A stretch of 64,000 nucleotides of DNA from Candidatus Latescibacterota bacterium (GCA_965205975.1 OZ242195.1:704001-768000), one strand, 5' to 3'. Positions 33,827-64,000 are shown, counted from the stretch's first letter. Notes: generated by a model not told the origin, from the letters alone. Numbers and translations are program-made.

Positions 33827-34928
33827 TACGCATTGGCTATAACCAAAGCAAATGACCCACTAGTGTTAGGGACATTTTTTCTAGTGAAAGATTAATTACT
33901 GATGCTGGATTGGATTCGATAAAAGAACTACCTCCCAATACCGTCTTGGTCACATGCATTGCGAGTATAGGAAAGAATGCAATTCTTAGGGTCCGTGGCG
34001 GGTGTAATCAGCAGATTAACGCGGTTGTGCCGAACAAACAACATTGGGCTGATTACCTTTATTACGTTTTTGAAAATGCAAAAGCATACCTGCTTGGAAA
34101 TGCTGGAACTACGGCGACAGCTATCATTTCCAAAGAGCTTTTTCAAAATCTTATCTTTCCTGTTCCTGCTCAGCACGAACAACGCGCCATCGCAGAGGCG
34201 TTGTCGGATGTGGATGAATTGCTTGATGCATTGGAGGAACTGATCGCTAAAAAGCGGGCTGTCAAGCAGGCTGCTATGCAGCAACTCCTCACAGGTAAGA
34301 CTCGCCTGCCGGGTTTCAGTGGGAAGTGGGAGACAAAGCGACTGGGAGAGATTGGTGACATCTCTGGGGCGGGAGTGGATAAAAAAGTTAGTATTAACGA
34401 GATGCCGGTCCGGCTCGTGAACTATCTTGATGTCTATCACAAGACATTTCTATATTCAGAGGATCTAACCCACGAAGTCTCAGCAAAATCGGATCAGGTT
34501 CGGCACTGTATGATTGAAAAAGGGGATATTTTCTTTACACCTACCTCTGAAGTGCGCGATGATATAGGCCGTTCTGCGGTCGCTATGGAGGATATTCCAG
34601 ATGGCGTTTATAGCTATCATGTCGTCCGATTGCGGTTGAAGACAGATTGGGACTTTTATTTTCGAGCTTATGCCTTCGATACAAAGGATTTTTTGGATCA
34701 AGCAAGCACGCAGTGCGAAGGCAGTGGTACGCGCTACGTCATAACCCTCCCAAAGTTCCGCGCGATGACCGTCTGTTTTCCACTAAACGTGGAGGAACAA
34801 GCTGCCATCGCCAACATCCTCTCCGACATGGACGCTGAGATCGATGCGCTGGAACAACGCCGGGACAAGGCCCGTACTATCAAGCAAGGCATGATGCAGG
34901 AACTTTTGACAGGGAAGGTACGACTGGT

Positions 34929-37900
34929 ATGAGTAATGTGCGAAAAGCAGAGAAGGTTACGCAGCGGCGTGTGATTGAGTTATTCCAAGATCAACTCGGT
35001 TATTCGTTTTTGGGTGACTGGACTGACCGTGAGAATAACAGCAATATCGAAGAGAAGTATCTGACCGCTTGGCTTGAGAAGCGAGTCTACACGCCAGAGC
35101 AGATCCGTCAGGCGCTTCTTCAGCTACACATTGAGGCGGACAATAGCAGTCGCGGCCTCTATGACAACAACGAAGCCGTTTACAGTCTGTTGCGCTATGG
35201 CGTGACGGTAAAGGTTGAAGCCGGAAAGCCGTCCGAGACCATTGATCTGATCGACTGGGACGAACCGGCGAAAAACGACTTCGCAATTGCCGAAGAGGTT
35301 ACGATAAAGGGCGGACATGAGCGTCGGCCGGATATTGTTCTCTACGTAAACGGTATCGCCATCGGTGTACTGGAGTTGAAGAATAGTCGGGTCAGCATTG
35401 GCGACGGCATTCGGCAGAATCTATCGAACCAGCAGCCTGAGTTTAACGCGTGGTTTTTCAGCACGGTTCAATTCGTCTTTGCTGGTAATGACACCGAGGG
35501 ACTGAAATATGGCACGATCGGGACGCCGGAAAAATATTTCCTCAAATGGAAGGAGGATGAAGAAGAGGACGAAGGCTATAAGCTCGACAAATATCTGACG
35601 AAAATTTGCCGCAAGGACCGGTTGATCGAACTTATGAAGGATTTCGTCCTTTTTGATGCTGGGGTGAAGAAACTGCCGCGTGTGCATCAGTATTTCGCGA
35701 TCAAGGCGGCGCAGGAGCATGTGAAGCGCCGCGAGGGTGGCATCATTTGGAATACCCAAGGCTCCGGTAAGAGCATCGTCATGGTGTTGCTCGCCAGGTG
35801 GATACTGGAGAACAATCCGAATGCTCGTGTGGCCATCATCACGGATCGGGATGAACTGGATAAACAGATCGAAGGCATTTTCTCCGATGCTGGCGAGTCG
35901 ATTGATCGAGCGAAAAGTGGTCGTGATCTTCTCGCAAAGCTGGGGGAGGCAAAGCCACGCCTTCTGTGTTCGCTTATTCACAAATTTGGCAAGCGGGATG
36001 TCGAGAATTTAGATAGCTGGCTCAAGGATCTCCAGGAGCAACCGAGCCCGACAGTTGGCGAGGTCTTCGTCTTCATCGATGAATGCCATCGCACCCAGAG
36101 CGGCAAGTTGCACAAGATGATGAAAGCAATAATGCCGAACGCTGTTTTCATCGGTTTTACTGGTACGCCGTTGCTGAAGAAGGATAAGAAGACCAGCATG
36201 GAAGTGTTTGGCGGATATATTCATACTTACAAGTTCAGCGAAGCGGTCGAGGATGAAGTTGTGCTCGACCTGGTCTATGAAGCCCGCGATATTGACCAGC
36301 GCCTTGGCTCGGAAGAGAAGTTCGAGACGTTGTTTGATGCCATGACCAGGGGGCTGAATGACTGGCAAAAGGGCGAGCTTCTTAAGAAGTGGGCCACGAT
36401 GCAAAGCGTGCTTAGTTCGAAATCGCGGATGGACCGAGTGGTCACGGATATTCTATTCGACTTCGGCACCAAGCCGCGCCTATCGAGCGAGCGAGGCAAC
36501 GCGATCCTGGTCTCATCGAGCATCTACGAGGCTTGTCGCTATTTTGATCTATTCGACAAGACGCTACTGAAAGACAAGTGTGCGATCGTCACCTCGTATA
36601 ACCCGAGCACACGGGATGTTACACGTGAGGAAATAGGTGCCAACTCCGAGACCGACAAACAGTTCATCTTCAATGTCTATAACGAACTGTTGGAAGATAT
36701 ACACCCGCGGTCGGGCAAATCCAAGACCGAGACCTATGAAGACAAGGCTAAGGATTTATTTAAAAATCAGCCAGCGAACATGAAGCTGCTGATCGTCGTT
36801 GACAAATTGCTGACAGGCTTTGATGCGCCGCCCTGTACATTTCTCTACATCGACAAATCAATGCAGGATCATGGGCTGTTTCAAGCGATTTGCCGTCCGA
36901 ATCGGCTTCACGATGAGGATAAGGATTTTGGGTACATTGTCGATTACAAAGATCTTTTCAAGAAGGTCGAAAACGCAATCGCGGTGTATTCGTCCGAACT
37001 TGATCACAGTGTGCCGGATCCCGACGTGTTGCTACAGGACCGTCTAACTAAGGGGCGTGAGCGATTAGATGATGCGCTCGAAATGCTTGAAAGGCTCTGC
37101 GAACGTGTCGAGCCTCCAAAGGACGATCTGGATTACATCCACTATTTCTGCGGCAATACTGAGATTCCATCAGACCTAGAAGAAAGTGAGCCACAGCGGG
37201 CAATGCTCTACAAGGCCGTCGCTGCCTTCGTGCGCGCTTACGCTAATATCGCCGACGAGATAGATAAAGCGGGCTATAGTCAGGCCGATATTGATCGGAT
37301 CAAAGAGCGACTGAAGCACTATATCGCCATCCGCGACATCATTAAAAAAGCGAGCGGCGAGATGATCGACTTGAAGGCCTACGAGGCAGACATGCGCCAC
37401 CTCATTGACACCTATATTGAAGCCGATGAGGCTCGCACAATCTCCCCGTTTGGCGATGAGAGCTTACTCGATCTTATCGTGAAAACCGGCATTGCCGATG
37501 TAATTGCATCAAAACTCGGCAACCTCAAGGGCAACAAGGAGGCAATCGCTGAAACGATTGAAAACAATGTTCGCCAAAGGATCATCAAAGAGCATCTTAA
37601 CGACCCAACCTTCTATGGTCGGATTTCGGATCTGCTCGACGAGATCATCAAATACCGGCGCGAGAAGGCGATTCAATACGAGGAGTACCTTAAGCAGATT
37701 GACAATCTTGTGAAAAGGCTGAATGCAGGCACAGCAGAAGAGACTTCCGAGAAGCTGGATACACCGGGGAAGCGAGCACTCTACAACAATCTTGGAGAGA
37801 ATGAAGAAATGGCGTTACGGGTTGATGCGGCGGTGAAGATGTACAGGCCGGACGGCTGGCGCGGCAACGAGGCCAAGGAGCGCACCATCAAGTATGTACT

Positions 37901-59178: not shown

Positions 59179-61242
59179 TCAAAAGCCCGTCTTGCGCGAA
59201 TAGTTCGGCTTGGCCTCGCACTCGGCGCACAACAATTCGGCGAGTGCCTCCGCGTCTTGCAGGTGGCCGAGGATTTCGGCTTTTCGGCGGACTACGGCGA
59301 AATCGCCGGGGGTCAGGGTGGCGAGGTCTCCGATTTCGGGTGGAGCTTCGAGCGCGAAATAGGTGCGGAACGCCGCTTGCGACTGGTCGGGGGTGAGATA
59401 ATCGAGCGCGATCTTGAAGGTGAAGCGGCGCAGGGTGGCCGGGTCGAGGTTTTCGCCGAAGTTGGTCGTACATGCGAACGGCAGGGGGTGGCTCTCCATC
59501 CACGTCAGCATTTCGTTGACTTGGCTGACCTCCCAAGAGCGCACGGCATCTCGGCGGGCGGCGAGCAGGGAGTCGGCTTCGTCGAAGACGAGGATGGTGC
59601 CTTCGGCGCGGGCCTCGGCAAAGGCGTCCGCGATTCGCTGTTCGGTTTGGCCGACCCACATCGACATCAGGTCGGAAGCCCGCTTTTGGGTGACTTGGAG
59701 GCCGAGTCGTTCGGATAGGTAGCGGACGAATGCACTCTTGCCGGTGCCGGGTGGACCTTGCAGACAGAGGGAAAAATGCTTGCCGCCGCTTTTTGCGATG
59801 CGATCTGCGAAGCTGACCGGGTCAATGTCGGCTCGGACTAAGGCGAGGTCGAATTTTTCGGGAGGCCCCTGATTTGCGGGGGGCTTCTCGCCATTAATCA
59901 CTTGGGACAGGCTACGGATGCCGAGGCGCACGGTGGCGAGGTCGCCGCCGCAGAGACTCGCGGACGCAATGGCACTGGACGCCACGCCTGGGGTCACGTC
60001 GAATTCTTGGGCCAGGGTTTGGGCGTCTTCTGCGGTTGCGTCGATGTGGTGACGCGCTAACTCTCGCTGCCAGATGCGCGCCCGCACTTTGGGCGGTGGT
60101 TGGCGCAACTCTAGGGCAAAGCTCATGCGGCGCAGGAGGGCATGGTCGGTCTCTCGAGCGGAGTTTGAGGTCCACAGCGTGGGAACCGGTGCGCGTTCGA
60201 GCAGCCGGTTTAGGAACACTTTGGAGCTGTTGGAGCGGAGGCGACCGAACGACGCGAATGGGAACCAACCCGCTGGGTCCGAAAGCAGGTCCTCCATTTC
60301 GTCGAAGAGTAGGATGGACTTGCGGCTTGGCGCGAGGAGGTGTTGAGCGAGCCGGAGTTCTTGTAGCCGTTCGCGCCGGTTGGGATCGCAGCCTCGCTCG
60401 TCCTCTTCGCCGACGCTGTAGAGATTGACCTCTATCTGGGCGGCCAGCGTCTTGCAAAACTCGGTTTTGCCGGTGCCCGGTGGGCCGTACACCAAGATGT
60501 TTACACCCGCTTTGCCAGCGGTGAGTGCGCCTTTGACCAATTTTTCGATGTGGTCGCGTTTCTCTGCTACGTGGTCGAAGTCCGACCACTTTAGCTCGCT
60601 TGGGGGCGCCGCGTCGAGCAACAGGCTACACACGTCGCAGGTGCGGGTCTCTGGGGCGGAAAATAGCCGGAGCAATCGCCTGACGACTTCGATATCGCCA
60701 TCTTGTTCCACGAACATAAGCCCGGACTTCACGAGCGGTGCATTGGCCGCGAAGCGGGCGCGGAATGCGCTGTCCGATAGGCCGAGCAGGCAGGGTAGGA
60801 CGGGGTGCATGGTGTTGAAGAAGCGATGTCTGTGATGGTAGCGACGGCCAGATTCCAAAGAATCGCTCAGATCCGTAAAGATCGGCTGGGTTTCGCAGCG
60901 GGCCCAAATTTCTATGAGCGCGAGGTCGGCGGGTGCGAGGTCCATTTCCCGCCCAAGCCGCTGGAGTTGTCGCGCCATGCGGTCTTTTCGCGCCTTTTTG
61001 CGGGCGGCTGCGTACTCTTTTTTAATAATCTCCCGCAGGACCTTCCAATCCCGAGCGGACAATTTTTTTTCGCGATGCTCCCACAGGTCGCTCAGCACTT
61101 CGTTCTCGTCAGCGAGCGCGAGGATGTCGCGGTTATCGGCCATCCAACTGGCCAGGGCCTCCTGTTGGTAGGTGTTGTGGAAGCGCGAGGCGGCGTTGGA
61201 AAGATAAAAGAGAACAAGCTGTCGTTCGTAGGCGTTGAGCAT
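59179..61242 (-). CDS. Tandem (two-ring) AAA+ ATPase
   Basis: GPPGTGKT/LLFDEMED/LLRR and GPPGTGKS/LVFDEADS/TLRR; C-terminal TGF; GGAGG/AAAGGA RBS. Confidence 0.92.
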   Translation of the reverse strand: MLNAYERQLVLFYLSNAASRFHNTYQQEALASWMADNRDILALADENEVLSDLWEHREKKLSARDWKVLREIIKKEYAAARKKARKDRMARQLQRLGREMDLAPADLALIEIWARCETQPIFTDLSDSLESGRRYHHRHRFFNTMHPVLPCLLGLSDSAFRARFAANAPLVKSGLMFVEQDGDIEVVRRLLRLFSAPETRTCDVCSLLLDAAPPSELKWSDFDHVAEKRDHIEKLVKGALTAGKAGVNILVYGPPGTGKTEFCKTLAAQIEVNLYSVGEEDERGCDPNRRERLQELRLAQHLLAPSRKSILLFDEMEDLLSDPAGWFPFASFGRLRSNSSKVFLNRLLERAPVPTLWTSNSARETDHALLRRMSFALELRQPPPKVRARIWQRELARHHIDATAEDAQTLAQEFDVTPGVASSAIASASLCGGDLATVRLGIRSLSQVINGEKPPANQGPPEKFDLALVRADIDPVSFADRIAKSGGKHFSLCLQGPPGTGKSAFVRYLSERLGLQVTQKRASDLMSMWVGQTEQRIADAFAEARAEGTILVFDEADSLLAARRDAVRSWEVSQVNEMLTWMESHPLPFACTTNFGENLDPATLRRFTFKIALDYLTPDQSQAAFRTYFALEAPPEIGDLATLTPGDFAVVRRKAEILGHLQDAEALAELLCAECEAKPNYSRKTGF

Positions 61243-61347: not shown

Positions 61348-61381
61348 AACTTACATAGGAGGTGCGACAGATCGCGTCGCG
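61348..61381 (-). promoter_or_regulatory. Putative WYL operator/promoter upstream of the AAA+ ATPase
   Basis: TGCGAC-AGATCGC-GTCGCG (61363-61381); minus strand TGTCGC-N10-TAAGTT. Confidence 0.75.
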
Positions 61382-61623
61382 GGAGAAATTTTTTATAAAA
61401 AGATCAATTTTCGTCAAAATCGTCCGTCTAATCGCCTTTCCGGCCAAGGGCTATCGGACCGAGAGAGGGGTCTTGCAATAGGTGCTGGATGGTCTAAGAG
61501 AATTTGTCGAGAAAGATCGGCGTAGGAGGGTGCTTGGGACGCGCCTGTAGCGCTGGATTGGTAGAAAGAGGGAGGCCGTGTATGGTGTCAGAGGGCTACT
61601 TAGTGGTAGAGATGTTGCAGCTA

Positions 61624-62457
61624 CTACGAAAATATAGTCAAGTTGGGATTTATCTCAGTATCTGCATATTTCCGGAGAAGAACTTGCCTGAAGTCTCCAA
61701 CGAACTGTTGCACGTAGCTGGCCTTCACTTGATTCTCGGCCTCCTGCAGCCACCCCTGTGCCCAGTCCACTAGGATCACGCAGGCGAAGCGACCTTCCTT
61801 TTCCAGTTTGGTTCGGCGCACTGATGAAAGGCTCTCAGGGGGCGGTGGTTTTCCGTCGGGGGTCAAGTACAGCAACAGATATTGCCCCTTGTACTTTCTA
61901 TTTAGGTTTTTGGCGTAGGCGTGTAGTTGACCTGGTGGATGCCCTTCACCCGGTTTGTTCTCAATCGCAATCCCTACTAATCTCCCGTCAACATTCATGC
62001 TGATCTCTATATCAATTCTCCGCTTCCGGTTATCGATGTGAGTGGTCGGCGCTTCTCTGTAAACTAGCGGATGCGACCAGTTAGAATCGTCTGGTAAAAT
62101 CCGCTTCATACCTAGTTGCGTCGCTTCGTCGTCCCGCAAATGCTTCAAGAGAGCGGCCAAGAACAGGTCTCTCTGTCCATGAGCAGAATCGGGTCTAAGC
62201 AGGTCCGCCAGCACGTCGGACATACGGTTTTCGTCGAGATGGATATACTTGAAAGTGCTGAAACGTCGAGCAAGGTGACGGTCAAGTTCAATTACGGCTG
62301 GCCTCAAAACGTTAAGACCTTGCTGGGCACCCTCGAAGAATCGCGAGATCTCTTGCCTGAGCCTTGTATCGCGGGCTTTCTTCAAACTATCAAGACCTTG
62401 CTTGGCATCCTCAAAAAATCTCCGGGTCTTTTGCTCAAGGTTCATTTCGCTGGCCAC
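61624..62457 (-). CDS. PD-(D/E)XK nuclease (PDDEXK_4-like)
   Basis: ENRMSDVLADLLRP...HGQRDLFL, YRE, RRIDI, IENK, QLHAY, LYLTP; GTG start after GGAGGAG. Confidence 0.88.
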   Translation of the reverse strand: MASEMNLEQKTRRFFEDAKQGLDSLKKARDTRLRQEISRFFEGAQQGLNVLRPAVIELDRHLARRFSTFKYIHLDENRMSDVLADLLRPDSAHGQRDLFLAALLKHLRDDEATQLGMKRILPDDSNWSHPLVYREAPTTHIDNRKRRIDIEISMNVDGRLVGIAIENKPGEGHPPGQLHAYAKNLNRKYKGQYLLLYLTPDGKPPPPESLSSVRRTKLEKEGRFACVILVDWAQGWLQEAENQVKASYVQQFVGDFRQVLLRKYADTEINPNLTIFS

Positions 62458-62459
62458 CT

Positions 62460-63062
62460 TCACTCCTCCAGTGACTCCGAAATGGCCTTCGCAGAAAGCA
62501 CCAATATGTATGTAAAGTGCTCGATCTTCTCTTGCCTGAGTTCGTCGTCGTGCAGTGTGCACAGGTCGTCAAAGGATTTGTGGCTGTCTTTTAGATAGGA
62601 CTGCCAACGCCAAGAATCCTCGGAATCTCAGGATCAGACCCGTATCCTGGAAATAGTCAGAGAGATCCTCCGCCGTTGGACAAGCCTCGTTTGCTGCAGG
62701 CGTTCCCACGAATATATCTTCCCAATAGCCGAGATATATTTTGATCTCTTGATCTTCATAGTCATCACGTAGATAATTTTTTCCGCCCTAGTACTTTCAA
62801 ACCTGTTCTCTTCCCTTGTACTATCAGATTCGTTTCTAACCTTCGTTTCTATAACCTTTGTCTTCCACTGCCGGAGTCGGCCACACGCCTCGAGTTTTTT
62901 CCTGACATTCTTATCGAGTTTCTTCAGAAAGGAAGACAGAATTTTTGCCCGTAGTTGTACTTGTATATGACCGATTGCCAGCGCAAGCCTAGTATTCTCC
63001 TTGGATTCCATGCAGTATTTTACCAGATATTTTTCTTCTTCAGGCGTCAGTTCCCTCATCAT
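62460..63062 (-). pseudogene. Hypothetical protein with two compensating frameshifts
   Basis: AAGGAG RBS; protein-like reading moves to another frame near 62755 (DQEIKIYLGYWEDIFVG...), returns near 62625 (DSEDSWRWQSYLK...ESLEE*), and stops 2 nt before the nuclease GTG. Confidence 0.6.
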
Positions 63063-63353
63063 AGTCTCCTTTACGTGAATTCATGGTTTTCTCCTCGCCC
63101 CTCTGCGAAGGTGTTTAAAATAACGTGCGTTCGGGTTAAGCGGCCCTCTAACTGGAGTCGTGCTTCCGCTTAGTAGCATACGGTTGCAATGTATGCATTT
63201 ACACACAAAAAATACGACCATTCCCTGTGTCAACCAAGACATGTTGATTTTAGCTTGGCGATCAACTGGAAATCAAAGCGCGTGCTCAGTATTGAACTCG
63301 AAAAATCAGCCTGTCGAGCTGTTGCCCCTCTGCTTATTCCCCACTCACGTAAG

Positions 63354-63387
63354 ATATTAATAAACCCCTGCGACAGATCACGTCGCA
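63354..63387 (-). promoter_or_regulatory. Putative WYL operator/promoter overlapping the WYL stop codon
   Basis: Perfect TGCGAC-AGATCAC-GTCGCA (63369-63387); minus strand TGTCGC-N10-TAATAT. Confidence 0.78.
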
Positions 63388-64000
63388 CCCCCATCATCCA
63401 ATCCCAACGCCGCCCGCATCTCCTCCCGCACCGCCGCCCGCAATTCCTCCGGCTCCAGCACCTCAGCCGCTGCCCCAAAACTCAACACCCAACTCTTGAT
63501 CTCGTAAAACCCCCCAGCCCGTAGCCGCAACACCACCCGCCCGTCGTCCAACTCTTCCAGTGTCTGGCTCGGATGCCAGAGCCGCTCCCGTATGTAGGGT
63601 GCCTGCTCCTCGGTGAACCGAACCACCACGTCCATCGGCTCCTCGAACGAGACGCCGAACGCATTGCTTACTTGCTCGTCAACCGACAGGTGATCCGGCG
63701 GCTCGAACTCCTCCTCGGTCACTTCCACCGACTCAAAGCGGTCCACCGCCTGCGTGATGAGCTGGTCGTAGTAGGGCATCCGCGAGATTACATATAGACC
63801 ACCCCGGTGCGGCAGGAGGCGCAGCGGTTCGATGTTGTACTGCTGGGCACTCTCCGCCCATGGCGAGCGGTAGCTCACCCGACACACGCGGTGCTCCAGG
63901 AGGGCGTCGTGTAGGTTTTCGAGTATTTCGCGGGCGTCTTCATAAGGCTTGTGCCCGCGCGCCAGCGGCACGTATGCCTCTGCGGCTCGCTCTATGAATT
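63378..64000 (-). CDS. WYL-domain transcriptional regulator (WYL + WCX), 5' end outside the window
   Basis: SYRSP...IEPLRL...GLYVI...DRFESV; AFGV, YIRERLWHPSQ, WVLSFGAAAEVLEPEELR. Confidence 0.93.
   Translation of the reverse strand, partial: FIERAAEAYVPLARGHKPYEDAREILENLHDALLEHRVCRVSYRSPWAESAQQYNIEPLRLLPHRGGLYVISRMPYYDQLITQAVDRFESVEVTEEEFEPPDHLSVDEQVSNAFGVSFEEPMDVVVRFTEEQAPYIRERLWHPSQTLEELDDGRVVLRLRAGGFYEIKSWVLSFGAAAEVLEPEELRAAVREEMRAALGLDDGGAT

Follow-up and report, generated by a model that had tools for sequence, protein, structure and literature searches.

A DriD-type palindrome with fixed promoter spacing marks the modules of a defence-like island headed by a WYL regulator in a Candidatus Latescibacterota bacterium

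WYL-domain transcription regulators are known as activators as well as repressors. The closest described system to the one reported here is DriD of Caulobacter crescentus (PMC10853764, PMC13004042; PDB 9pfq, 8tp8), a wHTH-WYL-WCX protein whose site, ATACGAC-N7-GTCGTAT, contains the CGAC-N7-GTCG palindrome that the initial annotation of this locus had ascribed to it (PMC13004042). As described there, the distance to the -10 hexamer is the same for every DriD site, no -35 element is present, and both wHTH domains are placed on the DNA. DriD contacts the beta subunit and alphaCTD, not sigma, and RNA polymerase is recruited without sigma adaptation; its didA promoter, as read off the printed sequence, runs TGTCGC, 10 nt, CAATCT (PMC13004042). 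DdaA of Moraxellaceae/Acinetobacter (PMC12392091, PMC13010146) is described as a homodimeric activator of defence genes with a DriD-like box, carries alanine at one of the WYL-loop arginines (PMC12392091) and answers mitomycin C via two tyrosines (PMC13010146). Mycobacterial PafBC (PMC8635444, PMC6789036) is a heterodimer that works by sigma adaptation on a non-palindromic -26 element, and the consensus attributed to it by the initial annotation agrees with the published tGTCgg(N10)tA(N3)T (PMC8635444). SiwR of Mycobacterium smegmatis is a homodimeric WYL activator of adjacent genes, namely one operon of DinB-like genes, which reads a 19-bp imperfect palindrome and needs the WYL arginines R204 and R207 (PMC10693628). 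CapW and BrxR also head defence genes, as repressors freed by ssDNA (PMC11662680). Outside the WYL family, the PeSL cassettes of T4-type phages are repeated promoter cassettes that serve as recombination points for modular shuffling (PMC2839356).

The locus described here shares with DriD the domain order, the CGAC-N7-GTCG palindrome over the -35 position, its fixed distance to a predicted -10 hexamer, the absence of any -35 consensus and the base-reading arginines. It differs in that DriD serves damage-response genes chromosome-wide whereas the box here is confined to a defence-like island, in the replacement of five ssDNA-pocket residues, and in the duplication of the box as an apparent gene-exchange module of ~45 bp. 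DdaA, compared by description, resembles it in the alanine and the two tyrosines, but acts genome-wide over recA, ssb and uvrA in a clade without canonical SOS, whereas LexA is present here. PafBC shares TGTCG-N10-TAnnnT and a recognition-helix arginine pair, while the present locus has one gene and a full palindrome. PeSL promoters are strong, sigma-70-like and accompanied by terminators in phages; those found here are predicted to be activator-dependent and lie in a bacterial island. The box and its geometry thus have precedent, as do defence-gene activation (DdaA) and a regulon of local scope (SiwR), and surprise is limited since the basic mode of regulation is not new. The features that appear distinctive are the remodelled pocket, the island with one promoter per module and a terminator-like hairpin overlapping the promoter in a paralogous family. 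The open-licence literature yielded nothing on WYL proteins with Latescibacterota, or with ADP-ribosylglycohydrolase, AAA+ ATPase, restriction endonuclease or conflict systems, and for this WYL family it returned the known regulators only, with no paper on the family itself. With this locus, the DriD box and its promoter arrangement are found in an uncultured phylum as well.

The window analysed is a stretch of 64,000 nt (GCA_965205975.1 OZ242195.1:704001-768000), and its features are collected in Table 1; other positions in the same genome carry the prefix G000:C1. Read on the minus strand, the order is the WYL gene, site A, an unnamed frameshifted gene, the PDDEXK_4 nuclease gene, site B and the double AAA+ ATPase gene. 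The WYL gene extends beyond the window edge and encodes 325 aa in full (G000:C1:767378-768355); site A overlaps its last codons and TGA stop (63380-63378). The unnamed protein of ~190 aa has no match in Pfam, PADLOC or NCBIfam, and a search of the ESM Atlas returned unnamed clusters only.

Table 1. Features of the regulator-proximal part of the island (positions in the window)
Feature	Position	Strand	Remarks
wHTH-WYL-WCX regulator gene, 3' part	63378..64000	-	Pfam WYL and WCX
Proposed operator A, DriD-type palindrome	63369..63387	-	core GCGAC-N7-GTCGC at 63386-63370
Predicted -10 hexamer TAATAT	63354..63359	-	10 nt past operator A
Unnamed gene (~190 aa), frameshifted in assembly (open to 142 aa)	62463..63062	-	precedes nuclease in related islands
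PD-(D/E)XK nuclease gene	61624..62481 (start codon approximate)	-	Pfam PDDEXK_4; matches PADLOC candidate PDC-S26 in part
A-tract, predicted UP element	61389..61394	-	about -53 to -48 of predicted start; role inferred
Proposed operator B, second DriD-type palindrome	61363..61381	-	core at 61380-61364
Predicted -10 hexamer TAAGTT	61348..61353	-	10 nt past operator B
687-aa ATPase gene, two AAA+ domains	59179..61242	-	resembles IetA and CDC48 models distantly, below cutoff

The two palindromes lie ~2 kb apart, where the initial annotation had placed them, and are identical at 17 of 19 positions, with 6 of the 7 spacer bases common to both. On the minus strand both sites show the TGTCGC, 10-nt spacer and TAnnnT reported earlier, ending in TAATAT (A) or TAAGTT (B); the inferred start sites fall near 63347 and 61341, respectively. 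Within the window, TGCGAC-N7-GTCGC has three exact strand-matches, all at these two sites, and seven matches at up to one mismatch compared with 1.4 expected. The whole genome contains 19 occurrences of GCGAC-N7-GTCGC, for which 0.13 pairs within 2.1 kb are expected, and one such pair is unremarkable by itself. The A/B pair is nevertheless considered non-random because the spacer and the spacing to the -10 hexamer are common to both. In line with the scan proposed by the initial annotation, CGAC-N7-GTCGC-N10-TAnnnT has sites A and B as its sole matches in the 5.56-Mb genome. The PafBC half-motif TGTCG[CG]-N10-TAnnnT alone matches 72 times, and therefore the full palindrome is regarded as the carrier of the signal. 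A matrix scan of the genome, with a matrix partly built from A and B themselves, returned these as the two best scores (27.3 bits each; next 21.2), and the other top matches were one in-gene site and the site of a paralog. Genome site 4603130 was rejected as a regulon member, since it is a perfect palindrome yet has no TAnnnT at 10 nt, and sites 4571542 and 1274215 were rejected as both lie within long ORFs.

The same element recurs around orthologous WYL genes. The sample comprised 20 genomes or contigs, namely this genome, 18 orthologues at 79-93% identity and one metagenome contig, with L065 and G057 counted once. Searched at up to 2 mismatches to a consensus derived from those loci, with TAnnnT outside the selection, this first family gave 71 sites in 19 of the 20, after exclusion of two in-gene matches (L098, L099), both without TAnnnT. 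TAnnnT stands exactly 10 nt downstream at 51 of the 71 sites, with 24 different spacers, and no other offset between 4 and 17 has it in more than 9; nine of the 20 sites without it at offset 10 keep nAnnnT. The homologous-locus scan thus upholds the spacing first noticed at A and B. However, these counts overstate independence, because the copies share descent and the genomes are kin. Copies of the WYL-end type number 17 among the 56 sites listed. All sites face away from the WYL gene, with the exception of one poor in-gene match on the opposite strand. The best TTGACA match reaches at most 3/6 in 50 of the 51 promoters, meaning that no -35 consensus is present, and an A-run of at least 4 within 35 nt upstream accompanies 49 of the 71 sites, in most cases at -55 to -49. 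When 21 genomes were searched for the exact pattern, 61 matches were found, compared with 10 for a reversed-pattern control. Of these, 49 fall within ~25 kb of the WYL gene, in keeping with the local regulon suggested at the outset; four genomes had zero exact matches, three of them being paralog-only and one having a frameshifted WYL gene. In a single case (L077:10920-10990), a frameshift in the WYL gene goes with loss of the palindrome, and the first cargo gene is preceded by TATAAT, as though this promoter had turned activator-independent. Additionally, orphan modules of A-tract, box and -10 hexamer were seen between genes far from WYL islands (L094:6786, L096:5583, L097 at 5521 on the reverse strand, and L100:5625).

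A more independent test of the box spacing than the first-family copies is provided by a paralogous WYL family, 42-49% identical and usually followed by its own AAA+ ATPase, of which this genome carries one copy (G000:C1:3975458-3976435, 47% identical). The box lies downstream of the WYL stop in 19 of 23 paralog loci, in 18 of them 6 nt past the stop. The other four loci comprise two with a more degenerate box at the same place, one that is decayed and one that an in-frame stop had caused to be misplaced. TAnnnT is found at offset 10 in 19/19 paralog boxes and in none at other offsets, and the best -35 match is at most 3/6 in all 19 promoters. The 7-nt spacers within the palindrome exist in 9 versions, and the DriD consensus ATACGAC-N7-GTCGTAT is matched exactly at three loci. 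Furthermore, in 18 of the 19 paralog boxes the -10 hexamer is followed by a terminator-like hairpin and U-run (L007-L027; here G000:C1:3976442-3976510), with compensatory changes at 4 of the 10 pairs across 17 aligned loci. The predicted start (here near G000:C1:3976481) falls within the 5' arm of this hairpin, which weakens the computed fold from about -11 to -19 to between 0 and -8 kcal/mol. The hairpin may block read-through from the WYL gene while transcripts started by the activator pass on to the ATPase.

The regulator itself is a single wHTH-WYL-WCX polypeptide (class A), which aligns to DriD over its full length; HTH_11 is found in the precomputed domains of close homologues. Its best solved relative is DriD (profile E 6e-21), with PafB following at 3e-9. 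When DriD numbering (PMC10853764) was mapped onto 97 homologues by sequence alignment, Arg8, Arg37, Thr38 and Arg41 of DriD corresponded to R6, R35, T36 and R39 here. Among the 97, R6, T36 and R39 are retained in all and R35 in 91 (Lys in the other 6), and the position of Glu40 is Gln in 86. Retention of the base-reading Arg8, Arg37, Thr38 and Arg41 explains why the box is DriD-like. On these grounds, we favour, at a probability of roughly 0.8, the reading in which both palindromes are conserved operator-promoter copies at which binding of a WYL homodimer switches on the downstream genes in the manner of DriD. The WYL gene would be transcribed from upstream, outside control of the box, and its pocket would bind a nucleic-acid signal, most likely ssDNA even though the pocket is remodelled. 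The ligand-bound dimer would then dock over -39 to -23 and recruit sigma-70 RNA polymerase, operator A inducing the nuclease transcript and operator B the AAA+ ATPase transcript. The cargo would act in conflict with phages or plasmids and not in DNA repair. An activator, not the usual repressor, thus appears to be wired to a defence-type island with one promoter per module.

WYL regulators that head defence loci are, as described for CapW/BrxR, usually repressors (PMC11662680), and a repressor of this kind could cover the -35 region by occupying the palindrome until ssDNA releases it. Both the position of the box over -35 and the defence-like nature of the cargo would suit such a protein. Still, there is no -35 consensus to occlude, and the spacing matches that of two activators, DriD and PafBC. 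Among the 11 PDB hits obtained with the family profile (E<=0.01), DriD leads and neither CapW nor BrxR appears, and no box lies upstream of the start of the WYL gene itself. Repression is thereby rendered improbable.

Returning to the activator reading, every box heads a variable module, and the sites number 1 to 8 per genome, differing in order and number. Of 20 loci, 12 carry the unnamed gene and 12 the nuclease, 11 a lipoprotein-like gene and 11 DnaB, 7 an outer-membrane-barrel-like gene, 6 ADP-ribosylglycohydrolase and 2 REase-ARP. Scattered among these are fragments of toxin-antitoxin systems, genes for type III restriction and PD-T4-4-like genes. The defence role of the cargo is proposed from family names and partial PADLOC matches, and the presence of DnaB, lipoprotein and outer-membrane-barrel-like genes was counted against it. 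The box-headed genes, comprising the 190-aa protein with the nuclease, the double AAA+ ATPase, the second DnaB and several unnamed genes, are candidate inducible anti-phage functions. The extra DnaB (L061:13647-14999 and homologues in 11 loci) is full-length and has its own box, with a -10 that is often GAATGT, and it often accompanies the outer-membrane-barrel-like gene. There is one WYL gene per island save for one tandem duplication, where the second WYL gene has its own modules (L060:18804-19781). A duplicated 75-codon WYL 3' end with a box was also seen (L067:15757-15990). Many sites are preceded by an element of 100-200 nt; its derivation from a decayed WYL 3' end was considered and dropped, as matches to the family profile were confined to true WYL ends and remnants.

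Since every module begins with a near-identical promoter of ~45 bp, copies of it could recombine, by which modules would be deleted, duplicated or swapped while each stays wired to the regulator. Nine site pairs other than WYL ends have 210-300 nt of upstream sequence in common and diverge no more than 6 nt past the palindrome; in L068, the promoter of another module type follows directly on the WYL end. Breakpoint clusters amount to 17 per kb at the box vs 6.9 in other intergenic regions and 2.7 in genes. Compared with matched windows, breakpoints occur in 30/42 vs 45/110 before gene starts and in 21/28 vs 75/124 after stops; the excess at the box is modest against other gene boundaries, and most breakpoints lie elsewhere. 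These junctions 1-6 nt from the palindrome and the cluster densities could also be expected if the palindrome, with inverted arms around a 7-bp overlap, served chiefly for crossover by a site-specific recombinase, shuffling cassettes in an integron- or pdif-like fashion with the promoter match being secondary. The single orientation throughout and the conserved 7-bp spacer of the first family (GCGATCT or GTGATCT in 49/71) point the same way. However, the paralog spacers vary while N10 and the -10 hexamer persist, and the matched-window excess is small. No recombinase was detected among the island proteins scanned, and a genome-wide search, which covered tyrosine recombinases, gave six PF00589 matches with none near the locus. 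Moreover, among 15 of 48 joints listed from four DNA-type runs, whose contigs drop rare variants, no site-to-site joint was seen. A dedicated crossover site is accordingly judged highly improbable, and exchange of modules at the box by ordinary recombination between repeated promoters, comparable to that at phage PeSL cassettes (PMC2839356) and with no dedicated cassette system, is the most likely course suggested by the sequences.

The promoter-proximal half-site with N10 and TAnnnT does fit the PafBC consensus (PMC8635444), and the 47% paralog could supply the second subunit of a PafBC-type heterodimer that reads only this half and adapts sigma. This is less probable again, considering that both half-sites are conserved, that islands carry a single WYL gene apart from the tandem duplication, that PafBC is described as requiring two different subunits (PMC8635444) and that the protein resembles PafB/PafC much less than it does DriD. 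The least probable reading takes the palindrome as an RNA hairpin, a terminator or processing site ending the WYL transcript and each module: site A was flagged as a weak terminator-like stem in a scan, but the arms show no compensatory change, the outer positions are often unpaired in the paralogous family (C-A in 12/19), no U-run is conserved, and the sites precede genes and ribosome-binding sites, by 25-56 nt in 28/51. As for the original proposal of a homodimeric activator, the comparative evidence sustains an operator of the adjacent WYL protein with activator-type geometry, whereas its PafBC framing falls away. The geometry that had been called exactly PafBC-type is also that of DriD and hence not PafBC-specific, so that sigma adaptation is not implied. 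'DriD-type' should replace 'PafBC-type', because the full palindrome, the one gene and the UP-like A-tract fit DriD.

The nature of the signal is more uncertain than that of the operator. In the alignment of the ssDNA pocket, the positions of Tyr168 and Tyr192 are invariant (Y162 and Y188 here) and R189 is retained in the present protein. Arg178 is replaced by Tyr and Arg207 by Ala in 97/97, and Arg204 by Ile or Leu in 96/97. Trp206 becomes Gln or Leu; Ser or Thr predominates at Tyr240, as does Tyr or Phe at Arg288. Five residues of the DriD pocket set (Arg178, Arg204, Arg207, Tyr240 and Arg288) are thus replaced. In DriD, R207A and Y240A are reported to impair activation and R176A-R178A to abolish it (PMC10853764), and the trigger is therefore uncertain as residues needed for activation in DriD are replaced here. 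On the other hand, ssDNA is still favoured because the alanine-bearing DdaA responds through its two tyrosines. Sensing of ssDNA is the likeliest trigger on this sequence comparison, albeit not an assured one. The remodelled pocket lets one ask whether WYL activators read signals beyond ssDNA. An ADP-ribose-type signal was considered because islands often carry ADP-ribosylglycohydrolase and the REase-ARP nuclease. In an extended, rather unlikely scenario, this WYL subfamily would have swapped the cationic ssDNA pocket for an aromatic one, sense ADP-ribose or another small nucleotide of phage attack, and run a self-rearranging defence array in which the operator-promoter is both switch and swap point and the paralog terminator passes activator-started transcripts only.

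The recA and lexA promoters read TTGACG-17-TATAnT and carry no box, so that DNA-damage genes, as far as these two represent them, lie outside the regulon. Because LexA is also present, the WYL regulon is considered local and not a replacement of SOS, which agrees with the local scope claimed earlier. Upstream of recA (G000:C1:571558) and lexA (G000:C1:5416076), a common motif ending in GTTCAC lies between -35 and -10 and is a candidate LexA box of this lineage. A third WYL gene (34521-35516) heads a type I CRISPR-Cas-like locus; it was rejected as a user of the box, having a different upstream palindrome, GCGGAC-N7-GTCCGC (G000:C1:35541-35559).

By its sequence context, the island looks horizontally acquired. 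Only one of 60 relatives, G057, has a close WYL orthologue (89%), and identity stays at or below 52% in 20 genomes of the same genus. The GC content of the WYL and ATPase genes is 61-62% vs 46% in the downstream flanking gene. In orthologous loci, WYL is preceded by a gene whose end is matched at 76% identity by a 38-codon remnant upstream of the WYL gene here (G000:C1:768372-768485); this genome has its own copy of that gene elsewhere, at 48%. The remnant likely comes from the donor and marks the left edge of the island. The named records bearing orthologues belong to Ca. Latescibacterota, with one labelled Gemmatimonadetes. In sequencing run X5, where no cover of the nuclease gene was seen, a 19-kb contig is ~98% identical over the ATPase and diverges 11 nt beyond operator B (L001:5392, window 61392). 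Contigs of the sequencing runs carry several indels across the frameshifted gene at 62463-63062, which suggests that other alleles of this first cargo gene exist in the population.
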